From IMG/VR virus record IMGVR_UViG_3300035678_000001: a DNA stretch of 64,000 nucleotides; one strand, given 5' to 3'. Below, in pieces: positions 29,162 to 55,094 of the stretch. The position numbers were made by a program, and so were the translations under genes. The DNA is from a virus. Its lineage: Duplodnaviria > Heunggongvirae > Uroviricota > Caudoviricetes. The notes below the pieces were generated by a model. That model worked only from the letters and a program-made list of their open reading frames with translations, searched no databases and was not told the origin of the DNA. How positions within the stretch are numbered: the stretch's first letter is position 1; each line of letters starts with the position of its first letter.

Positions 29162-29189
29162 GAGTGGTCTAACGGGCGTTCAGGCGTCA

Positions 29190-29333: not shown

Positions 29334-29339
29334 GCGCTC

Positions 29340-29510: not shown

Positions 29511-29552
29511 GGGGTACTCCTTGGGTAGGGACGTGGTGTCCTTGATCTACCC

Positions 29553-31464: not shown

Positions 31465-31478
31465 TGTGCCTCCCGGCT

Positions 31479-31494
31479 CTCACCCCTTCACAGG
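31479..31494 (-). promoter_or_regulatory. Conserved late-gene leader motif copy 1 (plus strand ctcaccccttcacagg; coding strand CCTGTGAAGGGGTGAG), upstream of the endolysin RBS
   Basis: Identical 16-mer found four times in the window, always 15-30 nt upstream of a start codon. Confidence 0.55.
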
Positions 31495-31534
31495 AGATCG
31501 AGCCGGGAAGACAGGAACCGCTTGAGGTGGTGCC

Positions 31535-32461
31535 CTACTTGGTGGCGACCGCCAGGCCGGTGGCCGAGCCGCCGAAGCAGGAGAAGCCCGCCGGGAGCGG
31601 GCGGCTGTTGTCCACCGACTCCTTCACGATGTCGAGGCACTTCGACACGAGGATGCCGGGACTGTTGGTGACCGACGCAGCGAGCGCCCGGTTGGCAGCA
31701 GCCTGCGCCTCGTTGGTGAGCAACTGCTGCTTCGCCACGCGGGTCGCGGCGTACTGCTGCTGCAACTGGTTCAACTTGTCCTGGGTGCCCTTGTCGAAGT
31801 TGAAGATGGGGATGAGCACGGAGTTCACGTCGATCCACTTGCCGATGTCGGTGCGCATCTGCTCCTGCACCTTGGCGGCAAGGGCGACGGCACTCGGCTG
31901 GTTGCTGTTGCCGTTCTCGTCCAGCCCCAGCGGGTCATAGCCAGCGAACGCACCGTTGACCGCCGTCTGCAAGTCACGCAGCAGAAGGTTCTTCGTGATG
32001 GCGTCGTTGTCCTTGTAGTTGCGGAACAGGTAGTCCACACCGTCCTCGCGGATCTGCCAGCGCAGCGAGATGTTGACGCAGGCCGTGGCCTGGCGGGCGA
32101 TGCGGACGTTGATGCACGAGCCCTCGGCGTGGCTCTGGGTGCCCTCGCCCTTGTCGCTGGCGTAGGTGTCGGTCTGGATGGCGTCGGAGAGTTCGTGCTT
32201 GACCTGCCACGGAGCCTTGAGGTGGAAGCCGTTGCCGAGGGCTCCGTCCGGCTTGCCGAAGGTGGTGAGCACAGCGACGTTCTTGGTGCCGACCGGAGCG
32301 AGCATCGAGATGACGCCGAACAACAGGGCCAGCAGGCCGAGAACGCCCGTGCCCCACGGCAGACCCTCTCGGGCCTCGCTGCCGGGCTCCGCGAGCCGTG
32401 ACGCTGCGAACAGCACCAGGGCCACCACGATGCAGATGACGAACAGCCAGAAGCAGAGCAC
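31535..32461 (-). CDS. SPFH / band-7 (stomatin-prohibitin-like) membrane protein, 308 aa
   Basis: N-terminal TM helix FWLFVICIVVALVLFAA then VAVLTTFGKPDGALGNGFHLKAPWQVKHELSDAIQTD, typical of the SPFH core. C-terminal coiled-coil-like Gln-rich segment. Confidence 0.6.
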   Translation of the reverse strand: MLCFWLFVICIVVALVLFAASRLAEPGSEAREGLPWGTGVLGLLALLFGVISMLAPVGTKNVAVLTTFGKPDGALGNGFHLKAPWQVKHELSDAIQTDTYASDKGEGTQSHAEGSCINVRIARQATACVNISLRWQIREDGVDYLFRNYKDNDAITKNLLLRDLQTAVNGAFAGYDPLGLDENGNSNQPSAVALAAKVQEQMRTDIGKWIDVNSVLIPIFNFDKGTQDKLNQLQQQYAATRVAKQQLLTNEAQAAANRALAASVTNSPGILVSKCLDIVKESVDNSRPLPAGFSCFGGSATGLAVATK

Positions 32462-32464
32462 GGA

Positions 32465-34444
32465 TCAGTCCTTCGCGTAGAAGTTGCGCACGTCCGCCAG
32501 GTCCATCGTGACCGGGCAGTCCGGCAGGTTGCCGACGATCTTGCGACCGTAGCCCTCGGTGACGAGGCGGCTGTCGAGGATGGCGACGACACCACGGTCC
32601 GTCTTGGACCGGATGAGGCGCCCGAAGCCCTGCAAGAGGGTCAGTGTCATGGCCGGGATGCTCATGCCACCGAAGGACGCCGAGCGACCGGCAGCGCGGT
32701 CGTAGGCGGCGCAGCGGGCGTTGAACATCACGTCGGTGGGGACGGCGAAGGGCATCTTGTCGATGACCACGAGGCGGCACGTCTCGCCAGCGAAGTCCAC
32801 GCCCGTGAAGAAGGACTTGAGGGCGAACAGGACCGAGTGCTCGTCGGCCTGGAAGGCGGCGGCGATCTCCTTGTTGTTGCCGTCCTGGCCCTGCATGAAG
32901 GTGTTGAAGCCCTTGCGCGCCAGCGTCGGCTTGAGCGCCGCGTAGGTGGACTGCATCGAGGCCCGCGAGGTGAACAGCAGCAGGGCGCCACCACCAGCAG
33001 CCTCGACCAGTTCGAGGGTGGTCACGGCGGCGACCTGACGCCACGCCTGGGTCTGCTTCGGGCTCGGGACGTTGCGGCCCGGCAGGTAGAGCAGCGCCTG
33101 GTTGTCGAAGTCGAACGGCGAGCCGACGTTCAGCGTCAGCGGGTCCGGCAGGCCGATCCGGCTCTGGATGTAGGTGAAGTCGCCGCCGACCGAGAGGGTG
33201 GCCGACACGAGGATCGAGGGCACCCGGCTCCACAGCCAGGCGTTCAGCCAGTCACCGACGTTGAGCGGCGCGTTCTTGAAGATGCGGTTGCCCTTGCCGT
33301 CGTCCTCCATCCAGCGGACGAGCGAGTCGTCCTCGGCGGTGATGACCTGGGCGATGCGCTCGGCGTAGCCGTTGGCGCGCTGGGCCAGGATGGTGCGGCG
33401 ACCCTCGGCCTTCTCGTCGCGGGCGCTGACGGCGCTGATCTTCTCGGCCATCTCGCGCAGGGCGTCGATCAACTGGGCGAACGTCTCGAAGTTCTCCGCG
33501 AAGTACCGCAGCGTCATGACGGACTCCGGGCCGAACTTCTCCGGCAGCAGCGACCAGACGGCGGTGAGGGCGTTGGTGACCTCGAAGCCGTGCAGGTCGC
33601 GGTCCTCGCTGCCCTGCTCCCCGGCGAAGTTGCGGACCTCGGTGATGAGGCGACGGACGCCGGACTCGCGGATCGAGTCGCCCAGCGCGTTGGTGGCGTA
33701 GTCCTCGATCTCGTGGGCCTCGTCCAGCACGACGGCCTCGTACTCGCCCAGCATCTGCGCGTGGCCGTCCGTCATCTCGCGGACCTTGAGGTCGGTGAAC
33801 AGCAGCGCGTGGTTGGTGACCACCACGTCGGCAGCCTTGGCGCGGGCCTTGGCAGCCTCCGCGAAGCAGACCGAGCCGAAGGGGCACTCGCGCTTGCCGG
33901 GGCACTCGTCGCTCGTGCTGGCGATGGAGCGCCAGTCCATGTCGGTCATCGGGGTGGAGAAGTGCTGCTTGTCGCCGTCGTGGTTGGGGTCTTCGGCCAA
34001 CTCGGTCAGCACGTCCGCGAGGAACGGCGCCTGGTCGGTGGTGGTGTTCTGCATCTTGTTGACGCAGGCGTAGTTGGAGCGGCCCTTGAGCAGCGCGAAC
34101 GAGAACGGCTTGCCGAGGTTGGCCTGCAAGAACGGCACGTCCTTGTTGGCGTACTGCTCCATCAGGGCGATGGTCGCGGTGGAGACGACGACCTTCTTGC
34201 CCGAGAGGATCGCCGGGATCATCGTGGCAAGGGACTTGCCGGTGCCGCAGCCCGCCTCGGCCAGCAGGTGGCGGCGGTCCTTGAGCGCCTTCTCGACGGC
34301 CTCCGCGAGCGCGTTCTGCTCCTTGCGCTGCTCGTAACCGGGGAGCATCGCCGCCAGGTTGGCCTGCGCGTCGGCCCACGTCTTGGGCTTGATGAGGGCG
34401 GGGGCTTCGGTCGTGGCGGTCATGTCTGGCTCCTCGGTCGTCAT
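32465..34444 (-). CDS. DinG/Rad3-family Fe-S helicase. The track start at 34657 is probably an over-extension.
   Basis: Walker A AGCGTGKSLATM, DEAH box VVLDEAHEIEDY and a Cys4 Fe-S cluster segment. Start set at the ATG 34444 (MTTEEPD, AGGAG RBS) because the upstream 200 bp carry intergenic motif family 2. The 34657 start cannot be excluded. Confidence 0.7.
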   Translation of the reverse strand: MTTEEPDMTATTEAPALIKPKTWADAQANLAAMLPGYEQRKEQNALAEAVEKALKDRRHLLAEAGCGTGKSLATMIPAILSGKKVVVSTATIALMEQYANKDVPFLQANLGKPFSFALLKGRSNYACVNKMQNTTTDQAPFLADVLTELAEDPNHDGDKQHFSTPMTDMDWRSIASTSDECPGKRECPFGSVCFAEAAKARAKAADVVVTNHALLFTDLKVREMTDGHAQMLGEYEAVVLDEAHEIEDYATNALGDSIRESGVRRLITEVRNFAGEQGSEDRDLHGFEVTNALTAVWSLLPEKFGPESVMTLRYFAENFETFAQLIDALREMAEKISAVSARDEKAEGRRTILAQRANGYAERIAQVITAEDDSLVRWMEDDGKGNRIFKNAPLNVGDWLNAWLWSRVPSILVSATLSVGGDFTYIQSRIGLPDPLTLNVGSPFDFDNQALLYLPGRNVPSPKQTQAWRQVAAVTTLELVEAAGGGALLLFTSRASMQSTYAALKPTLARKGFNTFMQGQDGNNKEIAAAFQADEHSVLFALKSFFTGVDFAGETCRLVVIDKMPFAVPTDVMFNARCAAYDRAAGRSASFGGMSIPAMTLTLLQGFGRLIRSKTDRGVVAILDSRLVTEGYGRKIVGNLPDCPVTMDLADVRNFYAKD

Positions 34445-34469
34445 GGGCTGGTCGTTGTGCTCCTGCGAA

Positions 34470-34502
34470 GGTACTACAGAGATGCTTGGAGTGACAAGTA
34501 CC
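34470..34502. promoter_or_regulatory. Motif family 2 copy (GGTACTAC-AGAGATGCTTGGAGTGACA-AGTACC, ends form an inverted repeat)
   Basis: Shares GGTACTACnnGAnATGnTTGG with 35109..35136 and GATGCTTGGAGTG with 29151..29169. Confidence 0.45.
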
Positions 34503-34653
34503 CCTTGGTGCTGCCCCAGGAGGGGCTTGGGGAGCCGACACCGGGCGTGGACCCACACGCCCGTTCTGATGTCGAGAGTGAAGCCGTAGTCGTCACCGTC
34601 AGAGCCCTCACAGGAGCAGGGCGCAGCGTACGGCGGGGTCACGACAGTTTCGG

Positions 34654-35073
34654 TCACCGGCTGGCGTGCTCCCGCTGACCGCGAGCCGCACCGGCCACGC
34701 GCTCCATCGTCCGGCGGTACTGCTCCTGATAGACGATGGTGCTCGGGGTGACGCCACGGGGGATGCCCGGCATGAGGTAGCCCTGCGGGTAGTCGTAGGA
34801 CTGCCCGACCTTCTCGATGCCGCCCGTGCCGTTGATGAACCGCTCGTTCTTGACGGTGCCGCAGCGTCCGCAGACCTCGGTGCGTCCGAGCGCCTCGATC
34901 TTGCGTCGTCCGGTCGTCGCCATCTTGATGACGTGGAAGTCGTTCTCGCGGACCCAGGCGTGTCGCAGACCGGGGTCACGGCAGTCGAGGAACTGGTCGG
35001 TCAGACCCTTGACCTTCTTGGCGACCTCGGCGGACGCCTTGAGTCCTGGCTTCTTGCGGGTGGTGCTCGCCAT
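34654..35073 (-). CDS. Hypothetical protein, 139 aa
   Basis: Track ORF with an ATG start and GGGAG RBS. Contains LDC...CGRCG. Confidence 0.5.
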   Translation of the reverse strand: MASTTRKKPGLKASAEVAKKVKGLTDQFLDCRDPGLRHAWVRENDFHVIKMATTGRRKIEALGRTEVCGRCGTVKNERFINGTGGIEKVGQSYDYPQGYLMPGIPRGVTPSTIVYQEQYRRTMERVAGAARGQREHASR

Positions 35074-35108
35074 GTAGTGGCTCCCTGTAGTCGGGGTGGT
35101 GCGTGGAA

Positions 35109-35136
35109 GGTACTACGAGAATGATTGGTATTGGTC
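35109..35136. promoter_or_regulatory. Motif family 2 copy (GGTACTACGAGAATGATTGGTATTGGTC)
   Basis: Shares GAAGGTACTACnnGAnATGnTTGG with 34470..34502 at a similar distance (~30 nt) from the downstream start codon. Confidence 0.45.
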
Positions 35137-36133
35137 AGCCGAGCGCCTTCTTGTTGCTGGCCCCCAAGGTCACCTCCGTCCCCAGGCTCGCGACAGCACC
35201 GGCCTGCTGACCAGCCTCTCGCCCGCGCCAGTCCCACTGGATCTCGGGCTCCTTGTGGACGCCCAACTTGCGGTCACCCACGTCGGCCTTGAACGCCTCA
35301 CTGACTTCGAGCGCCTTGGACCGGAGCACGAGCCCCGTCTCGTCGGACGAGGAGGCGTGCTGGTCGTCGTACTGCTTGCGGGCCTCGGCCTTGGCAGCCC
35401 ACAGCCGACCGGAGATCCGGGCGATGAAGCCGTCGTAGAAGTTCTGCCGCCAGATGCGGCCATCCACGGCGGTGCGCATCGACTCCTCAATCACCCACTC
35501 GCCGTTCTCGTCCTTGACCCGGACCTTGCGGAACTTCGGCGGCAGCGGGTAGTGCTTGTCGGCGTACTCCTGGCCGAGTTGCTCCACCATCTCGTCGTGG
35601 ACGCTCTGGCTGTCCGCGTAGTAGCGGTGGGTGTTCCACGACTCCTCATCGACCGGCTCACCCCAGGCGCGCTCATCGTTGGGGATCTCCTCGCGGACCC
35701 GCTTGTAGACCCGCTTCTTCTCCTTGTTGAGGCCGCGCTTGAGGCCGTCGTCGGCAGCAGCGACCATCTGGATGACGAGCGAGTTGTAGAGCGCCTCGGC
35801 CACGTCCTGATCGCCGGGGAAGCCGAACGGCCACACCACGGTGTTGTTGCTGGCGATCAGGCACTCAAGGTCGTTGACCGCCGCGATGGCGAGGAACAAC
35901 TGGCACTTCCACTTCGTCGTGGGGCTCAACCGCCACGACCGCTCCTCGATGCGGATGGTCCGCTTCTCGGGGGTCTGCCGCTTGGACTTGTCGGCCTGGT
36001 GCGCCCGAGCGATGGCGAGGTCGATGGCGTTGGCCGAGGCCAACTCCTGGGCCTTCTGCATGAAGGCCGCAGCCTCCTCCGGGGTGCTGGCGTTCTCGGC
36101 CTGGTGCAGCACCTTGGAGATGCGGTCGAGCAT
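35135..36133 (-). CDS. DUF2786-like hypothetical protein (~332 aa)
   Basis: N-terminus MLDRISKVLHQAENASTPEEAAAFMQKAQELASANAID resembles the DUF2786 family by recall. Start taken at the ATG 36133 rather than the overlapping 36172. Confidence 0.5.
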   Translation of the reverse strand: MLDRISKVLHQAENASTPEEAAAFMQKAQELASANAIDLAIARAHQADKSKRQTPEKRTIRIEERSWRLSPTTKWKCQLFLAIAAVNDLECLIASNNTVVWPFGFPGDQDVAEALYNSLVIQMVAAADDGLKRGLNKEKKRVYKRVREEIPNDERAWGEPVDEESWNTHRYYADSQSVHDEMVEQLGQEYADKHYPLPPKFRKVRVKDENGEWVIEESMRTAVDGRIWRQNFYDGFIARISGRLWAAKAEARKQYDDQHASSSDETGLVLRSKALEVSEAFKADVGDRKLGVHKEPEIQWDWRGREAGQQAGAVASLGTEVTLGASNKKALG

Positions 36134-36137
36134 CTTG

Positions 36138-37199
36138 TCAGCCACGGTCGTCGTCCTCGTCGTCGTCCGCACCGGGGATCTGGTCGCGGTAGTTGTCGGT
36201 CACTTCGGTCCAGTTCTGGGAGACGAGCCGGAGCAGGGCGCGCTCGCGCTCCTGCCGCTCGTACGCCTCATCCCAGGTGTCCTCGTTCTTCACGAGGTCG
36301 ATCTCGGCCTGGATCAGGTCTTGCAGGACGCGGGGGTCGAGCGCATCCAACTCCCACGACTCGTCCAGCCCAGTCTCGGCCATGTACGCCTCGAAGCGCG
36401 AGTCGGTTGTCTTGGCCGGGTTCGGAGGCGGGGCGTACTGCTGCACCTGCGCGTAGGACAGCGCGATCCGCTTGAGCCGGAACGGCGCCTGCGTCGGGCC
36501 GACGTTGCCACCGACGATGGTCATGTTGCGGCGCATGTGGTCGTAGATGTCGGCGCTGGTGATGCCGGTCATCCCGGCCATGAACTCGCGCTTCCAGTCG
36601 TTGAGCACGAAGGTCGCCAGGCGCTTCTGCATGTCGCGGGTCATGTCCAGCCCGGACGGGTCGTGGTCACCGATGTGCAGGATGGTCACCCGGTCGCCAC
36701 GGCGCAAGTAGTCACCGACGCGCTGGCTCGCAGCCCACATCTCGCTGGCACTGGTGTAGCCACGGCAGGCGAAGTACGGGACGTTGTTGCCCTCGCAGAC
36801 GGCCTCGATGACGCCGATGCCAGCGTCCTTCTCGATCCACACCTCGACCCGCTGCTTCTGCGTCTTCCACAGGTCGGTGCGGTACTGCTCGGACACCGCG
36901 TTGATGAGGGTGCGCGGCGACTCCCAGTGCGGCTGGCTGACGAGGTTGCGGGTGCGGTCGATCATGTAGTCCCAGTCGAACAGCCCGGCCATGCGGGCGT
37001 CGTTGAGGATGTCTCCGAGCCGCTTGTAGTTCTGCTGCTTGTTGTCCATCAGCCCACGGGCGACGAACTGGTAGTAGACCTGCCGCAGGGTCAGCGAGAG
37101 CCCCTGCTGGGCGTACTCCTCGCAGATCTCGGTGGCCTGGTCCACGACCGCGAGCCGCTCGGCGCCGATCTTGATGTTGGCGTACTTGATGCGGGACAT
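36138..37199 (-). CDS. Spo11 / topoisomerase VI-A-like protein (Mini-A-type: 5Y-CAP-like domain plus Toprim), 353 aa
   Basis: Candidate catalytic Tyr in TLRQVYYQFV (res 42-43, compare the R-[DE]-[IV]-[FY]-Y motif of Spo11/Top6A). Toprim Glu in VEVWIEKDAG (res 123). DxD in ILHIGDHDPSGLDM (res 178/180, compare VDCDPHG). The Y-E spacing of 80 and E-DxD spacing of 55 are consistent with Top6A. ATG start at 37199 confirmed. Confidence 0.55.
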   Translation of the reverse strand: MSRIKYANIKIGAERLAVVDQATEICEEYAQQGLSLTLRQVYYQFVARGLMDNKQQNYKRLGDILNDARMAGLFDWDYMIDRTRNLVSQPHWESPRTLINAVSEQYRTDLWKTQKQRVEVWIEKDAGIGVIEAVCEGNNVPYFACRGYTSASEMWAASQRVGDYLRRGDRVTILHIGDHDPSGLDMTRDMQKRLATFVLNDWKREFMAGMTGITSADIYDHMRRNMTIVGGNVGPTQAPFRLKRIALSYAQVQQYAPPPNPAKTTDSRFEAYMAETGLDESWELDALDPRVLQDLIQAEIDLVKNEDTWDEAYERQERERALLRLVSQNWTEVTDNYRDQIPGADDDEDDDRG

Positions 37200-37528
37200 C
37201 AGACGTTCCTCGTGAAGGTCAGGGGCGGACGGCCAGTGGCCTTGGTGACGTGCAGGGTGTGGCCGCGCTCGGCGTGGTCCTTGCGGTTGCGCCAGCCGCC
37301 GGTCGTGCCGCACTTGCAGACCCAGCGCCACGAGTCGTGGCTCAACGGCATCTCTGCACCCTCGACGGCGGGCCGATGCTCGATGGTCATGTCGTGCCTG
37401 GGGAAGACCAACTCCCACCGCTCGTCGTGGACACCGAAGATGCCACGGCACTCCCACTCGCCGGGCTGCGCGCCGCACTTGGGGCACTCGTGCTTGGCGA
37501 CCTCGGCATGGTTGGTGAAGACGCCCAT
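37199..37528 (-). CDS. Zinc-finger protein, 109 aa
   Basis: CPKCG...C ... CKCG. The ATG at 37528 forms an ATGA overlap with the upstream stop. Confidence 0.5.
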   Translation of the reverse strand: MGVFTNHAEVAKHECPKCGAQPGEWECRGIFGVHDERWELVFPRHDMTIEHRPAVEGAEMPLSHDSWRWVCKCGTTGGWRNRKDHAERGHTLHVTKATGRPPLTFTRNV

Positions 37529-38010
37529 CAGGACACCTTCTTCGGGCGCTTGTAGATGATGCGGTCGGACGAGAAGGTGCGGCTGTGGCCGGTACGGTCG
37601 GTCTTCACCTCGACGTTGATCTTGCCCTCGTTGGGGCCGGTGCCGAACTCGACGCCGACGACCTTCCACATGCCGCGCTCGCCCTCGACCCGGCAGGGGT
37701 GGCCGACCTCGATGAGGAAGTTCTTGGTGCCGGACTTCTTGTAGAAGCCGCGAGCGCGCTTCCAGTTGCGGGCGGGCGGGATGTGCTCGGGCGCCGGGTT
37801 CTTCTCGTAGCGGTGGCGCTGACCGAGGTGGCCCTGCTCGCGGGTGCAGACCCCGGCGTTGGACTTGAACCCGCAGCGGGTGCTGGACGGGGTGACGCCG
37901 GAGCCGCCGGGCGGCGGGGTGGCTGGCTTGGTGCTGCCACCAGCCTTGGCGATCTCGTCGCGAACGATGGCACGGACGGCCTGTTCGAGATCAGCGGAGA
38001 GGGTGGACAC
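37528..38010 (-). CDS. Hypothetical protein, 160 aa
   Basis: GTG at 38010 preceded by a perfect GGAGG RBS, confirmed in the sequence. Confidence 0.5.
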   Translation of the reverse strand: MSTLSADLEQAVRAIVRDEIAKAGGSTKPATPPPGGSGVTPSSTRCGFKSNAGVCTREQGHLGQRHRYEKNPAPEHIPPARNWKRARGFYKKSGTKNFLIEVGHPCRVEGERGMWKVVGVEFGTGPNEGKINVEVKTDRTGHSRTFSSDRIIYKRPKKVS

Positions 38011-38067
38011 GGAGGTGCCTCCTGTGGGTCGTGATGACTCTGACCCAAGAAGAATACCACACTCCAA

Positions 38068-38083
38068 AGATGTCCGGTAGTAC
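38068..38083. promoter_or_regulatory. Motif family 2 copy (AGATGTCCGGTAGTAC), near-identical to 5110..5126
   Basis: A 15/16-nt match between two intergenic regions 33 kb apart. Confidence 0.45.
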
Positions 38084-38086
38084 GGT

Positions 38087-38308
38087 CTATCGGGACTTCG
38101 GGGTGTAGGAGTGCGTCCCACCGTGTCCAGCCCGCTTGTTGCACGGCAGGCGACCCGACCTCGGGTTCCTCTTGTAGCCGCAGACCTCGCTCGGGGAGGA
38201 GTAGACCACCTGCCCACCCTCACTCACGTAGAAGGCCCGGTCGTCACCCTCCGTGGCTGGCTGGCTCAAGATCACCGTCCCAGTAGAAGGGTTGTACGGG
38301 TCCACCAC
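38087..38308 (-). CDS. Small hypothetical protein, 73 aa
   Basis: Track ORF followed by a 189-bp noncoding gap. Confidence 0.35.
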   Translation of the reverse strand: MVDPYNPSTGTVILSQPATEGDDRAFYVSEGGQVVYSSPSEVCGYKRNPRSGRLPCNKRAGHGGTHSYTPKSR

Positions 38309-38497
38309 CCCATCCCGGCGCCCAGAGGTTCAGAGGCTGCCCCCTACCCCACCAGACTCTGCACTGGCTTCTAGGTAGGAGACGCCTCTGCCTCCGAGCG
38401 CCGGGGATGTCGCATCCCGTATGCCCTGTCGGCTCGTCGTCTGCCCCACGGTGGGCCTCACCGCGTCGGGGACCGTAGCAGACCGTTTGAGGTGGTG

Positions 38498-38863
38498 TCA
38501 GCCCTGTCCGGGAAGGATCAGGCCGGACGGGCTCGTCATGGGGCCAGGAGCACCACCGTGGCCGTTGGAGCCCGCCAGCATGACGCTGCGCTGCTGCTGC
38601 AAGCCTTCGATGGCGTTGCGCAGTGCGCCCTCCAACTGCTCGGCCTCCGGCGCCAGCGACGGGATCAGCATGGTGTTCGCCAGACCCTGGCCCAGCACCG
38701 GGCTCGGGATGGTCAGGACGACCGCCAGGAGCGGCTGTGGGCGCCCCTCCGGCCCCGGCATGAGCACCAGGGCCACCTCGTAGGCGATGCCCTGTCCTGG
38801 GGCCGCACGGTCGATCACGTCTTCCACGATGGCCGCTACCTGCTCGGTGATCCGCTCGCTCAT
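38498..38863 (-). CDS. Hypothetical protein, 121 aa
   Basis: The ATG at 38863 forms an ATGA overlap with the helicase stop. Confidence 0.45.
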   Translation of the reverse strand: MSERITEQVAAIVEDVIDRAAPGQGIAYEVALVLMPGPEGRPQPLLAVVLTIPSPVLGQGLANTMLIPSLAPEAEQLEGALRNAIEGLQQQRSVMLAGSNGHGGAPGPMTSPSGLILPGQG

Positions 38864-40485: not shown

Positions 40486-40799
40486 ACCGTGGCGGGAGCC
40501 GCCAGCGCCAACTCCCACTCGACGCCGAACTCACCGTCGCCAGGGAACTCGATGGCGCGGGTGCCGACGACCTCGCCCCGGCACTTGAGGGTCAGAGCGG
40601 GGTCAGGAGCGACGAGGAAGCAGTGCTCCGGGAAGTGCCCGAGGAACTTGATCGAGGACTCGCCCACCAGGCGACAGGCAGGCACCTCGTGCGGCCCCCA
40701 GGTCATCGTCCACGGACCGGAGTCGTGGAGGGCACGCTCGATCTGGCGGGCACGGTAGACCGCCGAAGCCACTGCGAAGTCGAGCACCATGCTGGTCAC
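40482..40799 (-). CDS. Hypothetical protein, 105 aa
   Basis: Track ORF. First gene after the tail module. Confidence 0.45.
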   Translation of the reverse strand: MTSMVLDFAVASAVYRARQIERALHDSGPWTMTWGPHEVPACRLVGESSIKFLGHFPEHCFLVAPDPALTLKCRGEVVGTRAIEFPGDGEFGVEWELALAAPATV

Positions 40800-40893
40800 C
40801 CCCGTCCACTCCCAAGATGCTTGCTAGTGGGACTGTACCCAGAGTGAGCACGTCCAGTCCACAGGCATCTTCCACAGGGTGTGGAGAAGCGAA

Positions 40894-42393
40894 CTAGACG
40901 ACGCCCCAGTTGGCGCCATCAGCAACCACCCGTAGAACCGCATACTGGGCCAAGGTGCGGGAGGCGTCTCCGTCAATGGTTCCGACCAGTGGGGTCACCG
41001 TCAGAGCGGTCGAGTCGAGGTTCTTGATGGTGAACATCCGACCCGTGCGTCCAACCGGCGTGGGGAGAGTGGCGGTCAGGGTGACACCGGAGAAGAAGAC
41101 CACCGAGTCGGCGTTGGTCAGCGTGTAATCAGCCGTCTTGGTGGAGAACGGCTGGGACACTTCCGGCCCGTACTTCTCGGTCGCCAACTCGGTGATCGCA
41201 GCCTGCACATCGGTGGCGGCGACCGACCCTGCTGGTGTGTAGGAGATGGCCGAGGCGTCATGAGCGTCGGTGGTGTCCGCGAGGTGGTCTGACAGCGCCG
41301 TGGCGACCGCCTGGACATCGCTCTCGACTTCCACGACGGCTGCTTGCACGTCAGTGGCCGCGATGGTCCCCACAGGCGCGAAGGAGATCGAGGCAGCCAC
41401 CAGGGCGGCGCCATCGAACAGCAGGCCATCCTGATCCACCCCGACCGTGTGGGCGCCGTCGTCGGCGGCGTACAGCCGCACACGGGTGGCATGGCCGGTC
41501 GGGCTGGACGGCACGACCTCCACCGTGTCGGTCTTGACGACCGTCTCATCAGCGGTGGCCGCAACCGCCCCTGCACCGAGAGCGATGGCCCGAGCAGCCG
41601 TGGCCTGGGCCGCGAAGCCGACCGCTGTGGCGTCTGCCGAAGCCGCGTGCGCTCCGGCACCGAGGGCGGTGGCGCGCAGAGCGGTCGCCAGAGCGACCTC
41701 ACCGACCGCCGTGGTGTCGTTGGCACTGGCCTGGGTCTGGGCACCGAGCGCCGTGGCTCGGAGCCCGCTGGCTACCGAGTCCGAGCCGACCGCGCTGGCT
41801 TGGTTGGCGCTGGCCGCAGCAGCCTGGCCGACCGCTGTGGAGCCGGTGCCACCCGCCGAAGCGGACTCACCCAGAGCCGTGGCTTGGAAGGTCGAGGCGT
41901 CAGCGTTGTGACCCAGCGCAGTGCTCTGGTCGCTCTCTGCGATGGCACCGGGACCGACCTGGGTGGACTCGAAGCCGTCTCCGGCATGGGTCGAGTCGGC
42001 ACCACCGGCTCCGGTGGACGCGATGATCTGGTCGAGGGCGTCCTGCACGTTCTGTGCGGTGATCGACACGCTCGGTGACGTGTAGGGCGTCTGCGCGGCG
42101 GTCTGGAAGTCGCCCTCGGCGGGCTCAAGGACATCCACGTCCTCGAACACGACCTCGGCGTTGCTGCCCAGCGTGACGCCCAGCGTGACGCGCTGCGGGG
42201 TGTCGGTGTAGATCGAGACGACGCCCGTCAGACTCGTGAACGGGTTCGAGAGCGGCGTGCCACCCGCGCTAGACCCGTAGAACGGGTCGGCCAGTGGGGT
42301 GTTCGTCCCAGGACGCAGGACACGGATCGAGGCGCCAGCGAGCGTGTTGCCCGCGTTGTCGGTGATCGTCTTGAGCAGGTGAGCCCGCGCCAT
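40894..42393 (-). CDS. Tail fibre-like protein 1 (499 aa) with a shared N-terminal anchor and ~9 tandem ATALG/TAVG repeats
   Basis: N-terminus MARAHLLKTITDNAGNTLAGASIRVLRPGTNTPLADPFY is paralogous to the N-termini of the 43981..45297 and 45811..47520 genes. Ala/Gly/Thr-rich 13-15-aa repeats. Preceded by the late leader motif. Confidence 0.6.
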   Translation of the reverse strand: MARAHLLKTITDNAGNTLAGASIRVLRPGTNTPLADPFYGSSAGGTPLSNPFTSLTGVVSIYTDTPQRVTLGVTLGSNAEVVFEDVDVLEPAEGDFQTAAQTPYTSPSVSITAQNVQDALDQIIASTGAGGADSTHAGDGFESTQVGPGAIAESDQSTALGHNADASTFQATALGESASAGGTGSTAVGQAAAASANQASAVGSDSVASGLRATALGAQTQASANDTTAVGEVALATALRATALGAGAHAASADATAVGFAAQATAARAIALGAGAVAATADETVVKTDTVEVVPSSPTGHATRVRLYAADDGAHTVGVDQDGLLFDGAALVAASISFAPVGTIAATDVQAAVVEVESDVQAVATALSDHLADTTDAHDASAISYTPAGSVAATDVQAAITELATEKYGPEVSQPFSTKTADYTLTNADSVVFFSGVTLTATLPTPVGRTGRMFTIKNLDSTALTVTPLVGTIDGDASRTLAQYAVLRVVADGANWGVV

Positions 42394-42411
42394 CGTGGTC
42401 CTCTCTCGTCC

Positions 42412-42427
42412 CTCACCCCTTCACAGG
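42412..42427 (-). promoter_or_regulatory. Conserved late-gene leader motif copy 2
   Basis: ctcaccccttcacagg, identical 16-mer. Confidence 0.55.
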
Positions 42428-42449
42428 GCTCAAGAGGGGTTGGACAGGC

Positions 42450-43966: not shown

Positions 43967-43980
43967 CTACTTCTCCCTCG

Positions 43981-45297
43981 TCAACCGATGATGGGGTTGC
44001 ACGCGCTCGACTCGCGGTGCGGCCCGACACGAAGGTGACCCATCGTGTCCACGTAGACATCCCAGCGGTCCCCGTAGTCATCGTGAAGGACAAGCGTCGA
44101 GTGGTAGTTCCCGAAGGGGACGATCTCGACAGCATCAGCAGCAAGCACGCCAGCGTTGCATTCGTCAGACATGGCGGTGTCCCCGATGGCCCAGGCACCG
44201 TTCCCTCTGACCTTTGCACGGCGACCCATCGCCACAGCGGGTCCATTCGAGGAAACCTCGGCCTCCTTGCCAAAGACGATGGAGGAGCCGGACTGGCCGA
44301 TGGCGAGGGCGTCCTTGCCGATCACGATGTTGCCGTTGGGGTCTTGCAGACCAGCCACGCGAGCGCCGATGCTGACCCAGTTGGTGCCGTCGAAGCAGAT
44401 GAAGCGCAGCCAGTCCACGGCGCCACTGGCGATCACCAGATCGGGTGGGTTGATGACCTCGCTGGGCCAGGTGGCGTGACGCCCCACTCTGGTCGCCAAG
44501 TTGGCAACCGGCGTTCCGGGGAGAGTGCCGTCGTCGGTGAACTCGGTGGAGCCACCCATCACGTCAGCGAGGTAGAGGTATGCACCCGGAGTGCTCGGGT
44601 CGTTCCGGTAGACCTTGTAGTGGTCCGCGAACTGGTTGTAGTCCCAAGATGTGTAGACCGATCCGGTCGTGACACCATAGGTGCCAGAAACGTAGCCCTC
44701 GTCGTTCTCGGTGATGGGCGACTCGAAGCCGCCGCTATCCACCGTGGTGACGTAGTAGGTCACGTATCCGTACGTGGACCAGTCGATGCTGCCGCCGTCA
44801 TCGAGAGGGAGCGAGTGGACCCCGGTGGGCGCCTTCGGGAAGGGACCGTCCTGCTCCAAGGCCAGGATGAACTCCTTGCCCACCTCTCCGGGCGGGAAGG
44901 TGAAGGTGCAGTCGTCGGTCATCAGGATCTTGTTGATGTTGGCGATGGTCGGCTCGGGGATGGTCTGTGCCGCACCAGAGGCTGGGACGACCCGCAGGAT
45001 GTCTCCACCACCGCCACCAGTCGCGGGCTCAAGGATGTCCACGTCCTCGTAGAAGACCTCGGTGCCCGAGCCGATCTTGATGCCGAGGCGGACCCGCTGG
45101 GCGTCCTCAACGTAGAAGTCGATCACGCCGTCCGCGTAGGTGTGCGGATTGGATCGGGTGACGCCGCTGGTGTCGTCCACGTACATCGTGTCGCTGATCG
45201 GCGTCGTGGTCCCCGGCTGCAAGACCCGGACGATGGCGTTCGGCAGCACGTTGCCCTGGTTGTCCACCACGGGGCGGTACAGGTGTGCGCGGGTCAT
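43981..45297 (-). CDS. Tail fibre-like protein 2 (438 aa), shared N-terminal anchor
   Basis: MTRAHLYRPVVDNQGNVLPNAIVRVLQPGTTTPISDTMY. Preceded by the late leader motif. Confidence 0.6.
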   Translation of the reverse strand: MTRAHLYRPVVDNQGNVLPNAIVRVLQPGTTTPISDTMYVDDTSGVTRSNPHTYADGVIDFYVEDAQRVRLGIKIGSGTEVFYEDVDILEPATGGGGGDILRVVPASGAAQTIPEPTIANINKILMTDDCTFTFPPGEVGKEFILALEQDGPFPKAPTGVHSLPLDDGGSIDWSTYGYVTYYVTTVDSGGFESPITENDEGYVSGTYGVTTGSVYTSWDYNQFADHYKVYRNDPSTPGAYLYLADVMGGSTEFTDDGTLPGTPVANLATRVGRHATWPSEVINPPDLVIASGAVDWLRFICFDGTNWVSIGARVAGLQDPNGNIVIGKDALAIGQSGSSIVFGKEAEVSSNGPAVAMGRRAKVRGNGAWAIGDTAMSDECNAGVLAADAVEIVPFGNYHSTLVLHDDYGDRWDVYVDTMGHLRVGPHRESSACNPIIG

Positions 45298-45317
45298 CGT
45301 GGTCCTCTCGGTGCTCT

Positions 45318-45333
45318 CTCACCCCTTCACAGG
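45318..45333 (-). promoter_or_regulatory. Conserved late-gene leader motif copy 3
   Basis: ctcaccccttcacagg, identical 16-mer. Confidence 0.55.
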
Positions 45334-45358
45334 GCTCGGGGGTGGTTAGACAGGGCGG

Positions 45359-45814
45359 CTAGAAGGACCGCCACGCCGCAGTGACCGCCCGTGCAACTGG
45401 ACCTTGGCCGAAAGCGGTGGTGGCGTAGACCTCGATGATGAAGACGCTGTACGGCGCATCCGCCCCGGTGTCGGTGTGGGTGTCCATCAAGGTGCCGTAG
45501 CCGGTGTGCTGGTCCTGTGGCCGTGAAGCGGGTGTCAGTTGAGGGAAGTCAGTGGCCGGTCCCGTGCGGGTGGCGACCAGCGAACCTTTGGTCCAGTTGT
45601 CTGGATCGCTGAACGGGAAGTGGCCCGCGCTCGCGTTGTAGACGCTGCTGGTGTAGGAGATGACCGGCGGGCCATACGGCGGATCCCATCCCCAGACCCG
45701 TCGCGCTGCGTCGTTGCTGTCCAACGTCTGGCTTGCGTCGAGGTTGCGGATGATGCCTGGGGCCACGTTCGGCACCCCGGCAGGAACGACGGGAACACAG
45801 ACGACGTACGTCAC
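45359..45814 (-). CDS. Hypothetical tail-associated protein, ~151 aa
   Basis: GTG at 45814 forms a GTGA overlap with the stop of the 569-aa gene (confirmed). Confidence 0.45.
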   Translation of the reverse strand: MTYVVCVPVVPAGVPNVAPGIIRNLDASQTLDSNDAARRVWGWDPPYGPPVISYTSSVYNASAGHFPFSDPDNWTKGSLVATRTGPATDFPQLTPASRPQDQHTGYGTLMDTHTDTGADAPYSVFIIEVYATTAFGQGPVARAVTAAWRSF

Positions 45815-51314: not shown

Positions 51315-52828
51315 GAGTGGCTCACCGAGACAACACGGTTCTGGCCGTACGGCGACACGAGCAGCACCCCGTCGTTGGCGAAGCGGGAGGCGAGCACCTG
51401 GCGCGGAGTCAGCAGCGCCCGCTCGCCCGAGTAGGCGACCTGCTGGCCGTCGTAGTACGTGACGACCTCGTAGTCCTGGCCGAGCAGCACAGCCTCATCC
51501 GGTCCCTCGGCGTACGTCTTCACAGCCACGATCTCGGGGCTGTAGGACACCGTGGCGCCCTGGCTCTCGGAGAAGACCGGACGGGGCACGACATGGGGCT
51601 GCGTCGGCGGTGTGGGGTCCAGTGGGCTGGTCGGGTAGACGTTGGAGGAGATGGACACCTTCGGGGTGACCTTGGCCTCGACATCCCAGAAGGTGCTGTC
51701 GGCGGCGACCGCCGCGAACGGAATCGGGTTGTTGATCTCGACGCCGGACAGGTCGATGGTCGCGAGCGTCCCGGCAGGCTTGAGCACCTGCAAGACCCGG
51801 ATGGCCGACCACTCCTCGGCAGCCCGCTGACGAGTGCTGATCTCGGCCTGCTTGTAGGGCTTGACGATGAACTCTGCCCGCGAGCCGGTGCGCCCGATGA
51901 ACGCCTGCGACTCGTCCGGGTACATGATCTGGAACCACGAGTGGTGCTCGGCGTCCGCGAAGGTCGGGAAGTCATCGTGGACGCGGGTCCAGTCGCGGAT
52001 GACGCGCCCGTCGCTGTCGGTCGGAGCCGCCGCGATGTCGGACCAGGCGTGGCCCTCCAAGTTGGACCAGTGCGGGTAGAGCGCCTCGACCTGGGTCCAC
52101 GTGCGCGTCGAGCCAGCCGGGGTCGCGCCAGGCCGAGCCGACAGGGTGTCGTAGGGGATCAACTCCATCGCGCCCCACACGCCGTAGTCGTGGGTGAGGT
52201 CGTCGTACGACCGGCCACCGAAGATCGGCGGGATGAAGTTGCCCTGGCCGTCGAGCAGCCGCCAGATCTCGTACACGTCGCACTCGCACCCGAAGATCGC
52301 CTCGGCTGCCGTCTTGATCCCGGCCACCGTCGCGCCCAGCGGGATGGCCCGAGCCAGGTGCATGACCCGCTCGCGGTAGCGGGTGTCAGCGGCGTGCTGG
52401 GTGTCCCACTCGTCGCTGGTGAGGTTCGAGGTGAGCGGGTTGGCTTCGAGCCCCTCCTCCGGGTTGCGGTGCGCCGAGAACAGCGCGCCGTAGAAGGAGT
52501 CGAGGTCGTAGAAGTGCGTGCTCGTCATGGCCGACTGCAAGCGGTAGAGCAGGGTCCGCTTGCGCAACTGGCCCATGCCGGAGTCCCCGAGCAACGCCTT
52601 GAGGAAGCGCGTCAGGTGGCTCTGCGGGCGCAGGTCGTACAACTCCTCGAAGAAGTGGTCGAGGCGCCGGGCAACCTGGCGGTCCGGGACGAGCAGGTTG
52701 GTGCCGGTCAGCAGGCCGTCCGGGTTGGGTGCCGAGACGGTGATCTGGGCCGAGAAGATCGAGGACTGGGCGTAGCCCGATGCCGGGTCGTAGATCGAGG
52801 TGGCCTGGCTGAACGTCTGGGTGCTCAT
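51311..52828 (-). CDS. Baseplate-associated protein, 505 aa
   Basis: Internal ATG at 52828 (MSTQTFSQ...) forms an ATGA overlap with the baseplate J stop (confirmed). The N-terminal 180 residues of the track ORF are rejected. Confidence 0.55.
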   Translation of the reverse strand: MSTQTFSQATSIYDPASGYAQSSIFSAQITVSAPNPDGLLTGTNLLVPDRQVARRLDHFFEELYDLRPQSHLTRFLKALLGDSGMGQLRKRTLLYRLQSAMTSTHFYDLDSFYGALFSAHRNPEEGLEANPLTSNLTSDEWDTQHAADTRYRERVMHLARAIPLGATVAGIKTAAEAIFGCECDVYEIWRLLDGQGNFIPPIFGGRSYDDLTHDYGVWGAMELIPYDTLSARPGATPAGSTRTWTQVEALYPHWSNLEGHAWSDIAAAPTDSDGRVIRDWTRVHDDFPTFADAEHHSWFQIMYPDESQAFIGRTGSRAEFIVKPYKQAEISTRQRAAEEWSAIRVLQVLKPAGTLATIDLSGVEINNPIPFAAVAADSTFWDVEAKVTPKVSISSNVYPTSPLDPTPPTQPHVVPRPVFSESQGATVSYSPEIVAVKTYAEGPDEAVLLGQDYEVVTYYDGQQVAYSGERALLTPRQVLASRFANDGVLLVSPYGQNRVVSVSHS

Positions 52829-54630
52829 CCGGCGACCCCGAAGGAGTTCTGCGCCTTGATGCGCGGGGTGTTCACCGTGGCGCCGCCGCCCACCGAGTCG
52901 AAGACGGGGATCTCGTTGTCCGCGAACGGGATGTCGATGGCGCGGCCCTCGCTGTTGGCGTAGGTGTGCGTCACCACGCCCTTGACGACCCGCTGGATCG
53001 CGTAGTTGGCCGAGTCGTCGGTCTGGTGCAGGAAGCGCACGTTGTCTACGCCCTGCACGTTGTGGACGAACTGCAACACGTCGCTGACCTGCAAGACGGT
53101 GCCGAAGACGAAGTTGACGAGCAGGGCGGCGATGGCCTCGCGGATCTGCTCGTTCACCGCGTTCTGGCTGTAGCCCGGCGAGTAGACGACAGCGAGGTTG
53201 AAGCGCAGGCCGATCTGCTTGGCCTGGTGGACCTTGGTGTCGGTGCCCATCAGACGGGCTGCCTCGATGTTGCTCTGCACCGAGAGCACCACGTCGTTGT
53301 AGGTGTAGTCGCCGCTGTCCCCGATGACGAAGATCGCTCCGCTGGGCGGCAGGTTGGTCGCCTTCCACTCCAAGCCGAACAGCGAGGTGGGGGTGTAGCC
53401 GAAGGACGAGTCCTCGTGAACGACCCAGTAGTCGGTGCCGAGGTGGTAGGTCGGCTGCCCCTCGACCGAGAGGGTGGGCGGCACGGACAGGATCGGGCCG
53501 TACGCCAGCGGGATGAAGACGTTGTTGACCGCAGGGGCGGTGTCGTCCTCACGGACGAAGCGCAGTGACGAGTAGAGGTCGCCGTACGCCGGGCTGAACC
53601 GCTTGTTCTGCGAGAAGATCACCGACTGCACGGCCTCGCGGGCGCGCTGCCCGGCCACGTACACGTCGATGCGGTTGAAGATGTTCTGGCTCGGGTCGTT
53701 GCGGCTGGCCTTGGGCTGATACTCGAAGTCGAGGTCCATGATGGCGCCCTCGAAGGGGTGGATCTCGCCGTCCGCGCTCGGGTACGAGGTGTTGAGCGCC
53801 TGCACGAACGGCGGGTTGGCTCCGGCGTCGAACTTGTAGTCGTGGCCGGACAGCAGCACGTCACCCGCGTCGATGTTCGGACCGAAGACGGCGCCCTCGG
53901 GGTAGATGAACGCCGCCCCGGCCAGGGTGCTGACTGCCGAGCCTCCGACCACCTGCACCTGCTCGCGGTGGCGCTTGGAGGAGCCGATGACGTTGGCGTT
54001 GAACACGTTGTCGTCGTCGTTGGCGATGCCGAGGTACATCTGCTCGACACCAGCCAGGTTGCGGAACGCCGTACGACGCCAGCGGGCGCGCAGGGCGGTG
54101 TCGGACTCCTGCGGGGTGCCGCCCGTGATCGGCTGGATGTTGGTCACGTCGGTGATGCCCTGCACGGGCGTCAGGAGGTTGGTCAGCAGGCCCGCTCCGA
54201 TGTTGCCGGAGACGCCGCCCAGGACCGCCATGACCGGCACCGAGATGGACCGCACGCCGTTGTCCATGAACGCCGGGACGACCGTGACGACGGTGACCGT
54301 GCCGGTGCTGACCTGGGTGTTGGTCGGGATGATGAGCGGGATCGTCAGGTCGCCTTCGCCCCGCGAGAAGATCACCGCGCCGCTGGCCCGCCGGGCGCCG
54401 TAGCGCACCATGCCGAACAGGGCCACGAACTCATCGAGGTCCGCCTCGGACTTGGTGTCGATGTCGTACTGGTAGGTGATGAGGTGCCGGTCGATGTACG
54501 CCTCGGCGGCAGACTCGCCCACCACGTCGAGGATCTTGCGGGTGGTCGTGCCAGTGGAGGTGTCGAGGTCAGGGTCGGTGACGGCGAGCGTCTGCCGCAT
54601 CTGGGAGACGACGCTGTTCAAGTCGGGCAT
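52825..54630 (-). CDS. Baseplate J-like protein (gp6/gpJ/XkdT family), 601 aa
   Basis: Size, the N-terminal region (...ADLDEFVALFGMVRYGARRASGAVIFSR...) and its position directly after a gp25/W-like gene. Call by recall. Confidence 0.65.
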   Translation of the reverse strand: MPDLNSVVSQMRQTLAVTDPDLDTSTGTTTRKILDVVGESAAEAYIDRHLITYQYDIDTKSEADLDEFVALFGMVRYGARRASGAVIFSRGEGDLTIPLIIPTNTQVSTGTVTVVTVVPAFMDNGVRSISVPVMAVLGGVSGNIGAGLLTNLLTPVQGITDVTNIQPITGGTPQESDTALRARWRRTAFRNLAGVEQMYLGIANDDDNVFNANVIGSSKRHREQVQVVGGSAVSTLAGAAFIYPEGAVFGPNIDAGDVLLSGHDYKFDAGANPPFVQALNTSYPSADGEIHPFEGAIMDLDFEYQPKASRNDPSQNIFNRIDVYVAGQRAREAVQSVIFSQNKRFSPAYGDLYSSLRFVREDDTAPAVNNVFIPLAYGPILSVPPTLSVEGQPTYHLGTDYWVVHEDSSFGYTPTSLFGLEWKATNLPPSGAIFVIGDSGDYTYNDVVLSVQSNIEAARLMGTDTKVHQAKQIGLRFNLAVVYSPGYSQNAVNEQIREAIAALLVNFVFGTVLQVSDVLQFVHNVQGVDNVRFLHQTDDSANYAIQRVVKGVVTHTYANSEGRAIDIPFADNEIPVFDSVGGGATVNTPRIKAQNSFGVAG

Positions 54631-55058
54631 CAGGCACCTACCGTCAGAGGGATCGTCACGCGCTGGTTGGCCTGCGTGACGAGGACGACGAACACGGTCA
54701 CCGTGTCGAAGTTGATCTGGACCCGGATGTCCTGAATGGCCCGCACCACGTCGCTGGTGTCGTACCGGGAGGCCCGCTGGGCGGTGAAGTCACCAAGCAC
54801 CTGGGCGCGCTGGACGAGGACGTAGTTCTGCAAGACCCGGTTGGCCTCGCTCTCCACCAGCAGCGCCACCTCCTCGGTCAGGGTCTGGCCGATGTAGGAC
54901 CGGATGATCGAGCCCCAGTCCCGGTGGAAGCGGTCGTTGCCGAGCGGCTCGATCAGAGCACACCGAAGATCCTGGGTGATGCGAGCCGCCCCAGAGATCG
55001 TCTTGTGCCCCGCAGGCGTAACCACGAGGTCACCGTCTGCGAGCGCCAACTGCTTCAT
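54630..55058 (-). CDS. gp25/GPW-like baseplate wedge protein, 142 aa
   Basis: IEPLGNDRFHRDWGS matches the GPW_gp25 signature (GERVMRPDFGS). Preceded by the late leader motif. Confidence 0.6.
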   Translation of the reverse strand: MKQLALADGDLVVTPAGHKTISGAARITQDLRCALIEPLGNDRFHRDWGSIIRSYIGQTLTEEVALLVESEANRVLQNYVLVQRAQVLGDFTAQRASRYDTSDVVRAIQDIRVQINFDTVTVFVVLVTQANQRVTIPLTVGA

Positions 55059-55066
55059 CGTTCCTC

Positions 55067-55082
55067 CTCACCCCTTCACAGG
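55067..55082 (-). promoter_or_regulatory. Conserved late-gene leader motif copy 4
   Basis: ctcaccccttcacagg, identical 16-mer. Confidence 0.55.
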
Positions 55083-55094
55083 CGTTCCAAGCGG

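Follow-up and report, generated by a model that had tools for sequence, protein, structure and literature searches.

Late promoters of phage T4 (TATAAATA) are read with the phage proteins gp55, gp33, and gp45, and at T4 gene e, which encodes the lysozyme, a hairpin with the late start inside it reportedly masks the ribosome-binding site (RBS) of read-through transcripts, as McPheeters et al. are said to have described in 1986. To our knowledge, there are essentially no studies of transcription timing in the large lytic phages of actinobacteria that are related to Mycobacterium Cluster C phages, Rhodococcus phage E3, and Gordonia phage Skog. The nearest described features of actinophages are the start-associated sequences (SAS), which sit at the position of the RBS 3-7 bp from the start codons of non-structural genes, with inverted repeats as their extended partners (ESAS; PMC3203893, PMC7302621), and the asymmetric, one-orientation repeats of 18-30 bp in Microbacterium Cluster EC/EI phages, which lie in short intergenic gaps at 21-30 bp from the start codon that follows; in EC phages, the motif includes a -10 hexamer of the TAGACT type and is found mainly before non-structural genes (PMC7302621). 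Here, we describe an element that differs from both in sequence, position, and the class of genes that it precedes. It was found in a 64,000-nt stretch of a tailed virus (IMG/VR record IMGVR_UViG_3300035678_000001), all of which we refer to as the window, and our full-text literature searches retrieved no description of it, nor is it mentioned in a paper on a Rhodococcus phage. We propose that a perfectly repeated 16-mer in this window is probably the downstream box of a 37-bp bipartite promoter of the late class that would need one or more phage factors and serve virion and lysis genes.

The 16-mer CCTGTGAAGGGGTGAG (written on the coding, i.e., minus, strand; plus-strand text CTCACCCCTTCACAGG) had been noticed upstream of four genes, and a sequence scan confirmed all four exact copies in the window. 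When up to three mismatches are allowed on either strand, ~0.8 matches would be expected by chance; four were observed, every one exact and with no near-copy beside them, and the only 14-mers that occur four times in the window are sub-words of the 16-mer. Each copy lies on the coding strand in a short intergenic gap and is followed by a purine-rich RBS and the start codon, all of which agrees with the original prediction, while its distance of 15-30 nt to the start codon was only roughly right (14, 18, 20, and 8 nt from the 3' end of the 16-mer for the copies at 31479, 42412, 45318, and 55067). The claimed extension of the match to 18-20 nt did not hold up, since the 5' flank differs between copies (t/c/c/g) and only one purine extends it on the 3' side. 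What had been missed is a second box further upstream and, with it, the full unit: The four regions align without gaps as a 37-nt element CCTGTC-N3-CC-N10-CCTGTGAAGGGGTGAG, in which all copies have the same distance of exactly 21 nt between the CCTGTC box and AAGGGGTG downstream of it. The 16-mer is therefore the downstream half of an element of the general form CCTGTC-N21-AAGGGGTG-AG. The copies in the window are listed here with their scores for a position weight matrix:

55067..55103, minus strand: putative late element before the gp25-like baseplate gene (16-mer at 55067-55082; 32.8 bits), reading CCTGTC (55103-55098)-N21-AAGGGGTGAG
45318..45354, minus strand: putative late element before a 438-aa fiber-like gene (16-mer at 45318-45333; 36.4 bits)
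42412..42448, minus strand: putative late element before a 499-aa fiber-like gene (16-mer at 42412-42427; 37.0 bits)
31479..31515, minus strand: putative late element before the endolysin gene (16-mer at 31479-31494; 31.4 bits)

In the first of these, the TGA stop codon (55097-55095) of the upstream 1172-aa gene falls within the spacer. The source of the window is a 153,872-bp Logan contig that is circularly permuted relative to it, and a fifth copy, also overlooked before, lies ~660 nt past the window start (L015 14168-14204; L numbers denote contigs) with one mismatch and with CCTGTC at the same distance; it precedes the gene of an 803-aa protein with a LigT/RNA-ligase-like domain. The 10 kb past the opposite end of the window hold no additional copy. 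A weight matrix trained solely on other phages and applied to both strands of 81.5 kb of the contig recovered exactly these five sites, at 31-37 bits, and no other site on either strand reached 12 bits. In all five copies (window 31479-55103 and the fifth), the bases directly before AAGGGGTG read CCTGTG.

The gene labels attached to the four copies in the original prediction also stand, with one baseplate, two fiber-like, and one lysis gene downstream of them:

54630..55058, minus strand: gp25-like baseplate gene, directly before the Baseplate_J gene
52825-54630, minus strand: Baseplate_J gene, the second gene of the gp25-like unit
43981..45297, minus strand: fiber-like gene of 438 aa downstream of copy 45318, with an N-terminus common to two other fiber genes
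40894..42393, minus strand: fiber-like gene of 499 aa downstream of copy 42412, with YadA_head repeats (E 1.9e-15)
30658..31464, minus strand: endolysin gene downstream of copy 31479, with CHAP and PG_binding_1 domains, on which its assignment as endolysin is based

The gp25-like gene heads a unit that continues with the genes for Baseplate_J, DUF7297, a 1265-aa minor tail protein, and a 569-aa fiber. The window has 66% G+C, and an analysis of G+C at third codon positions (GC3) puts nearly all genes on the minus strand, which we therefore follow from high to low coordinates: Positions 64000 to 40894 encode tail, baseplate, and fiber proteins (Baseplate_J, DUF7297, minor tail protein, YadA-head fibers), positions 40800 to 31535 helicases and other replication or repair proteins, and positions 31464 to ~29200 a lysis island with the CHAP/PG-binding endolysin at its head and small membrane proteins behind it. 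Below this island follow DnaB, ribonucleotide reductase (RNR), the alpha subunit of DNA polymerase III, and RecA, so that it is flanked by replication and repair genes on both sides. Given this layout, the element marks three units of the tail module and an isolated lysis island.

Among 50,697 deposited phages, nucleotide searches with two parts of the window (20 kb and 4 kb) gave no match, and this phage has no close cultured relative; its Baseplate_J protein has ~30% identity with its counterparts in myoviruses of Mycobacterium (Cluster C), Gordonia (135 kb), and Rhodococcus. Metagenomes contain 190 Baseplate_J homologues that are mostly 43-50% identical and often encoded on contigs of 150-165 kb, and we fetched the loci around 50 of them for comparison. 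The element recurs before gp25-like and fiber genes in relatives with Baseplate_J proteins of 39-91% identity: In the closest relative (91%), the gp25-like gene and a fiber gene are each preceded by CCTGTC-N15-CCCACG-AAGGGGTGAG, a 48% relative has CCTGTC-N17-CCCT-AAGGGGTGGAGG ahead of the same two kinds of genes, and most members of the main clade have (C/G/A)CTGT(C/T)-N21-22-AAGrrgTG before the gp25-like gene. These forms define the CCTGTC box, the distance of 21 nt, and the AAG...TG box as the conserved features. A scan of IMG/VR for CCTGTC-N21-AAGGGGTG gave at least ~70 matches in viral contigs with a GC content of 0.6-0.71; among the matches listed, many fall on contigs of 152-160 kb, and several contigs have 2-4 copies. 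The logo of 60 non-redundant sites adds a T at position 0, A19 and G20, a C-run at positions 21-25, and G27, with a purine at position 36 in 57 of them. Judging from these comparisons, the element is common to a large uncultured clade of ~150-165 kb high-GC actinobacterial myoviruses.

We also considered that the two CCTGT words of the copies in the window, a direct repeat 21 bp apart, might be tandem binding sites, and rejected this idea because the second CCTGT is not kept in relatives (CCCACG in the 91% relative, GCCCT or CCCCGN in others). In that closest relative, CCCACG appears at both copies (L017 2824-2860 and 12013-12049), which amounts to a concerted change of three bases compared to CCTGTG, and in other members of the clade the hexamer before AAGGGGTG differs between copies within one genome. 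A distant subclade with genomes of 160-166 kb (L038, L040, L041, L042, L045) carries CCCCGGAAG-N5-GGAGG before late genes, with several copies per 20 kb, some of them after AT-rich stretches, and without a CCTGTC box at fixed distance. Mycobacteriophage Cali (Cluster C) has no clear element before its baseplate gene.

With two exceptions that are discussed below, all functionally assigned genes downstream of the element in relatives are head, tail, or lysis genes. They include portal, tail sheath (on three contigs), tail fiber, and gp25-like genes, a head-protease fusion, and four genes whose products are homologous to the minor tail protein of 1265 aa. Also among them are a scaffold-like gene that lies before the capsid gene and endolysins that match different PHROG families. 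A signal for a temporal class would be expected to show just this kind of confinement to virion and lysis functions, and the element has the properties of a class-specific promoter at all five copies and in the relatives, i.e., it is repeated, oriented with the genes, intergenic, and tied to one class of them. Among cultured phages, Gordonia phage Skog (152,435 bp) has one site of exact consensus and two CCTGTG-N26-GTAGAG sites, before tail-spike gp161 and sheath gp177, which keep the spacing to GT(A)GAG as well as A19 G20 C21 C22 and A28 A29 G30; other late genes of Skog carry GAATCTGTAGAGG. Since no RNA polymerase of phage origin is annotated in the Skog genome, a mechanism based on the host polymerase appears likely.

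The surroundings of the element in relatives suggest that it is a place of transcription initiation. Terminator-like hairpins, several with T tracts, adjoin the CCTGTC box in L095 (both copies), L080/L094, L167, L169, L177, L107, and L015, where a very strong one (GACGAGGCCCGACCTCC...GGAGGGTCGGGCCTCGTC; L015 14095-14150, ~590-640 nt past the window start) lies immediately upstream of the fifth copy in a 60-nt stretch that folds at -41 kcal/mol. In L128 (at the portal gene) and L168, the upstream neighbor is divergently oriented. The element thus sits where a promoter is required, behind a terminator or a divergent gene, in relatives and at the fifth copy, while neither was seen upstream of the four copies in the window. 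On its 5' side, the element directly follows or overlaps the stop codon of the preceding gene, and its 3' end (GTGAG) is immediately followed by the RBS. Its span of 36-37 nt equals the length of a promoter from -35 to +1, with T34 followed by purines at the expected +1. A stretch that contains TTGACA precedes the hairpin at L015 14095-14150.

The element does not resemble a promoter of the host's primary sigma factor (sigma-A/sigma-70), as the original prediction had correctly stated: It contains no TANNNT, CTGTCn agrees with TTGACA at 3-4 of 6 positions, and the window region 29000-47000 holds no sigma-70-like site. Different sites, which also occur in the early region, stand before early or middle genes, namely sigma-A-like promoters of the form TTGCG-N17-TAGTAY whose spacer holds the palindromic operator CAAGGATCCTTG:

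29121-29166 of the window: sigma-A-like promoter with operator
17146, 19776, and 20723 of L015: sigma-A-like promoters with operator
40800-40893 of the window: possibly a further site of this kind

A diverged copy of this promoter and its CAAGGATCCTTG operator directly follows the lysis island.

In the model that we favor, the promoter t-CCTGTC-N21-AAGGGGTG-AG would turn on virion and lysis genes late in infection, with CCTGTC as a -35-like box and the G-rich box covering the -10/discriminator region, and one or more phage proteins made earlier would redirect the host core RNA polymerase to it. Transcription would begin at about positions 35-37 of the element (T34, then a purine) and give short leaders with the RBS only. 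The constraints that put this start near positions ~33-38 come from the -35-like geometry, from start codons 2 nt after GTGAG (L051), from the RBSs that abut the box, and from a predicted structure at the endolysin:

31455..31520, minus strand: predicted long hairpin around the endolysin copy (-38.7 kcal/mol, z = -3.96, 0 of 200 shuffles as stable)

In this hairpin, the spacer CUUCCCGGCUC (positions 7-17) pairs with GAGCCGGGAGG, which includes the Shine-Dalgarno (SD) sequence, and the predicted structure would mask the RBS of the lysin gene only in transcripts begun upstream of the element. Such an arrangement makes sense if late transcripts start inside the hairpin and early read-through RNA stays untranslated, in which case only transcripts from the late promoter would be translated, as at T4 gene e. 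A comparable pairing is predicted in L183, L079, L165, and the portal sites, without being general (p = 0.067).

The best candidate for the phage factor is a free-standing protein resembling sigma region 4, gp4666-5007, together with its conserved partner, the DUF7236 protein gp4349-4669:

4666..5007, minus strand: gene of the candidate trans factor (113 aa), whose C-terminal ~60 residues have a predicted sigma region 4 (-35-binding) fold
4349..4669, minus strand: DUF7236 gene that overlaps the end of the sigma4-like gene, encoding a protein predicted to be largely disordered
~5064-5069 of the window (L015 8439-8444): CCTGTC upstream of the sigma4-like gene, also seen in L183, L184, and L185, in one case inside a hairpin

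The helix-turn-helix (HTH) fold of sigma region 4 is indicated for gp4666-5007 by several results: a Pfam match to Sigma70_r4_2 (E 6.5e-5, below the curated cut-off), a well-defined AlphaFold model (predicted local distance difference test, pLDDT, of 91), and Foldseek top matches to the region 4 domains of SigD, SigR, SigL, SigC, and sigmaE on -35 DNA, with a root-mean-square deviation of ~2 Å over ~60 residues and template modeling (TM) scores, normalized to the target, of 0.7-0.8. A sequence search of the PDB with a sigma4-like profile gave nothing significant. The protein has 209 homologues of 52-92% identity, and its conservation exceeds that of Baseplate_J; in the same vein, the sigma4-like and DUF7236 proteins are 50-92% identical compared to ~45-50% for structural proteins, and their genes are overlapping and adjacent in all five relatives examined. 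In Skog, the sigma4-like domain forms the N-terminal part of a 305-aa protein. The model of the DUF7236 protein has a pLDDT of 59, and its PDB sequence search found no match. Of five phages examined, four have CCTGTC in the gap of 130-190 nt that precedes the sigma4-like gene, where chance would give ~0.05 per gap, and this may hint at autoregulation. In the most specific version of our model, late transcription would use gp4666-5007 together with the disordered DUF7236 protein; gp4666-5007 would bind CCTGTC in trans and replace region 4 of the host sigma factor on RNA polymerase, AAGGGGTG would be read by a sigma2-like or a non-sigma factor, and concerted changes of the phage-specific hexamer would reflect co-evolution with the factor. 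We offer this split or "borrowed region 4" mode of sigma appropriation tentatively and as a rather doubtful proposition; if true, it would be a form not described so far.

A number of observations weigh against the promoter model and its candidate reader. The label "late" comes from the functions of downstream genes, and not all of these are obviously late, given the 803-aa LigT/RNA-ligase-like protein behind the fifth copy, whose L168 homologue likewise follows an element, and a protein of 941 aa that weakly matches the ParB C-terminus. The scan for the element covers 81.5 kb of the 153,872-bp source contig, and it found no copy among the tail genes that extend over ~19 kb ahead of copy 55067. 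As a promoter, the element is unusual in having no recognizable -10 box, in its strongly conserved G-rich discriminator, which is atypical, and in a gap between the boxes that, at 21 nt, would be wrong for a plain -35/-10 pair with AAG as the core of the -10 box. In several relatives, moreover, the box can pair with sequence downstream of it and so form the 5' arm of a hairpin, which would require that it is transcribed and thus that transcription starts at or before positions 24-28. Regarding gp4666-5007, Foldseek gave weak E-values of 0.1-0.5, and no region 2 was matched by the N-terminal ~50 residues, which form two helices, a beta-hairpin, and another helix, nor was Sigma70_r2 found in any of ten early-region proteins (gp4666-5007 and nine neighbors); it is therefore not a complete sigma factor. 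The suggestion that this regulator reads the motif fared unevenly: Its sigma region 4 fold and high conservation speak for it, but region 2 is absent and the tie to the element is one of co-occurrence. Finally, AAGGGGUGAG pairs with the anti-SD sequence of 16S rRNA at -13.3 kcal/mol, at least as well as annotated RBSs, and a role in translation would also yield conservation near start codons.

Such a role would have the purine-rich box act as an extra or standby SD-like site that boosts or times the translation of late genes from long read-through transcripts, an explanation that we consider improbable. It would account for the fact that a start codon on the same, coding strand always follows the box, down to a distance of 2 nt from the ATG in L051, and it has precedents in the SAS and ESAS of Cluster K and EF actinophages. 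Unrelated phages also have the same 16-mer directly before start codons: The exact 16-mer has 12 single matches in IMG/VR, of which only the one in L012 is a true site, and we rejected the other 11, which have no CCTGTC partner, as matches due to chance or SD context. Viral contigs that show no sign of relatedness to this clade and in part are jumbo-sized (L002, L007, and L008, of 234-350 kb, as well as L005 and L010) have the identical 16-mer immediately before start codons, which indicates that the sequence also works as an ordinary SD context. However, the distance from box to start codon varies from 2 to ~85 nt in relatives (8-20 nt here) compared to 3-7 nt for SAS, and the CCTGTC box at its fixed 21 nt upstream has no complementarity to the anti-SD sequence. 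The related GAATCTGTAGAGG box of Skog lacks SD character (-5.2 kcal/mol), and the gene classes are different, with non-structural genes behind SAS and structural or lysis genes behind this element. Moreover, the frequent place of the element behind a terminator or divergent gene would need a promoter in any case.

Alternatively, CCTGTC or possibly the whole element could bind a phage activator that recruits the host sigma-A holoenzyme, which likewise has little probability in our view. The -10 box would then be TGAGRR/TAGAGG (positions 34-39) with a start ~7 nt further on, and CCTGTC would be centered at ~-41.5 as in class II sites. This geometry is attractive insofar as the 3' part in Skog and L022 reads GTAGAG(G), close to the actinobacterial TANNNT -10, copy 55067 would yield a leaderless mRNA that starts from the ATG, and a small HTH protein is conserved in the clade. 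Yet a start ~7 nt past position 39 would fall inside the open reading frame in L051 and remove the conserved RBS at copies 31479, 42412, and 45318, and the hexamer of this phage, TGAGRR, has neither an A at -11 nor a T at -7.

Very improbable is a 5' untranslated region (UTR) signal in the form of an mRNA-stabilizing hairpin, an RNase site, or the site of an RNA-binding regulator, for which one can cite the C-run at positions 22-25 that can pair with GGGG at 30-33 to form GNRA-like loops, strong hairpins involving the box in some relatives, and the z score of the endolysin copy, but which finds no Rfam family match at gathering score, no covariation in the orthologous set upstream of gp25-like genes (6-9 of 14 sequences paired per proposed pair, no better than in shifted registers), no consistent fold, z scores between -1 and +0.5 for five of nine folded regions, and a complementarity of spacer and downstream sequence that is not general (p = 0.067). 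Neither of the hallmarks of a structured RNA, a curated family or compensatory base pairs, was thus found. Two structural candidates were discarded along the way, namely a small CCCC-loop-GGGG hairpin, which is not kept where the G-run varies, and complementarity of spacer and downstream sequence as a universal feature, since it is confined to a subset of sites. Of the three options that the original prediction had left side by side, a late promoter or activator site is favored over an RNA-level element by comparative evidence, i.e., by the fixed spacing of a bipartite element, its association with virion and lysis genes, the terminators and divergent genes upstream, and the lack of likeness to sigma-70 promoters, whereas a 5'-UTR RNA structure finds no support.

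Some neighboring genes deserve mention in their own right. The three fiber-like genes at 45811-47520, 43981-45297, and 40894-42393 encode proteins that are alike over the first ~95 residues (46-50% identity) and differ after these; the latter two have a late element of their own, while the one at 45811-47520 is translationally coupled to the preceding gene. Directly upstream of the element of the endolysin, 31535-32461 encodes a membrane protein with a Band 7/SPFH domain. Three paralogous genes without Pfam match (60259-63547, minus strand; 316, 314, and 334 aa; 34-37% mutual identity) lie upstream of the 1172-aa tail protein gene, the first two adjacent to each other and the third beyond a short open reading frame. 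A tRNA scan found none.

A clean, genome-wide marker of late units would make it possible to tell early from late units in the many genomes that metagenomes have yielded for this clade and to flag genes of unknown function as late or virion genes, and it would supply tightly phage-dependent promoters for genetic tools in Mycobacterium, Gordonia, and Rhodococcus. If the sigma4-like protein were the reader, it would represent a compact new way of redirecting bacterial RNA polymerase. Skog, which grows on G. terrae 3612, offers a cultured system for the model.

As a kind, class-specific late promoters are well known, while the consensus and architecture of this probable one and its possible free-standing region 4 reader were not found in the literature searched. 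Like the SAS/ESAS of Cluster K mycobacteriophages and Cluster EF Microbacterium phages, the element is conserved, SD-like, and asymmetric, lies upstream of selected genes, has a second conserved feature just upstream, and varies between subclusters. It differs in that its box is 8-20 nt from the start codon (2-85 nt in relatives) with a separate RBS behind it, marks late genes, and has a single CCTGTC hexamer at fixed spacing as its upstream partner; neither the RBS position at 3-7 bp nor the combination of non-structural genes with an inverted-repeat partner is seen here. With the EC/EI repeats (PMC7302621), it has in common that it is asymmetric, intergenic, used in one orientation, and found in lytic actinophages with a sigma-like gene, but the sequences are unrelated and our element lacks TANNNT and precedes structural and lysis genes. 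Promoters of extracytoplasmic function (ECF) sigma factors similarly have two boxes at fixed spacing, and the fold of gp4666-5007 is like an ECF region 4 (sigmaE on -35 DNA), though the boxes are unlike the GGAAC/CGTC-type consensus and the protein has no region 2.

The element resembles T4 late promoters in that both are short, class-specific elements unlike those of the host that precede many virion and lysis genes, including a lysin gene among earlier genes. In T4, small phage proteins act with the core polymerase of the host, and one of them takes the part of sigma region 4, as we propose here. A hairpin that would mask the RBS of the lysin gene is predicted in this phage, as at T4 gene e, with a late start that would lie inside it. 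In contrast to the AT-rich T4 sequence, however, this element is G-rich and bipartite with a -35-like box at fixed spacing. No homologues of gp55, gp33, or the clamp were identified here, and the candidate gp4666-5007 has a true sigma4 fold, which gp33 does not.

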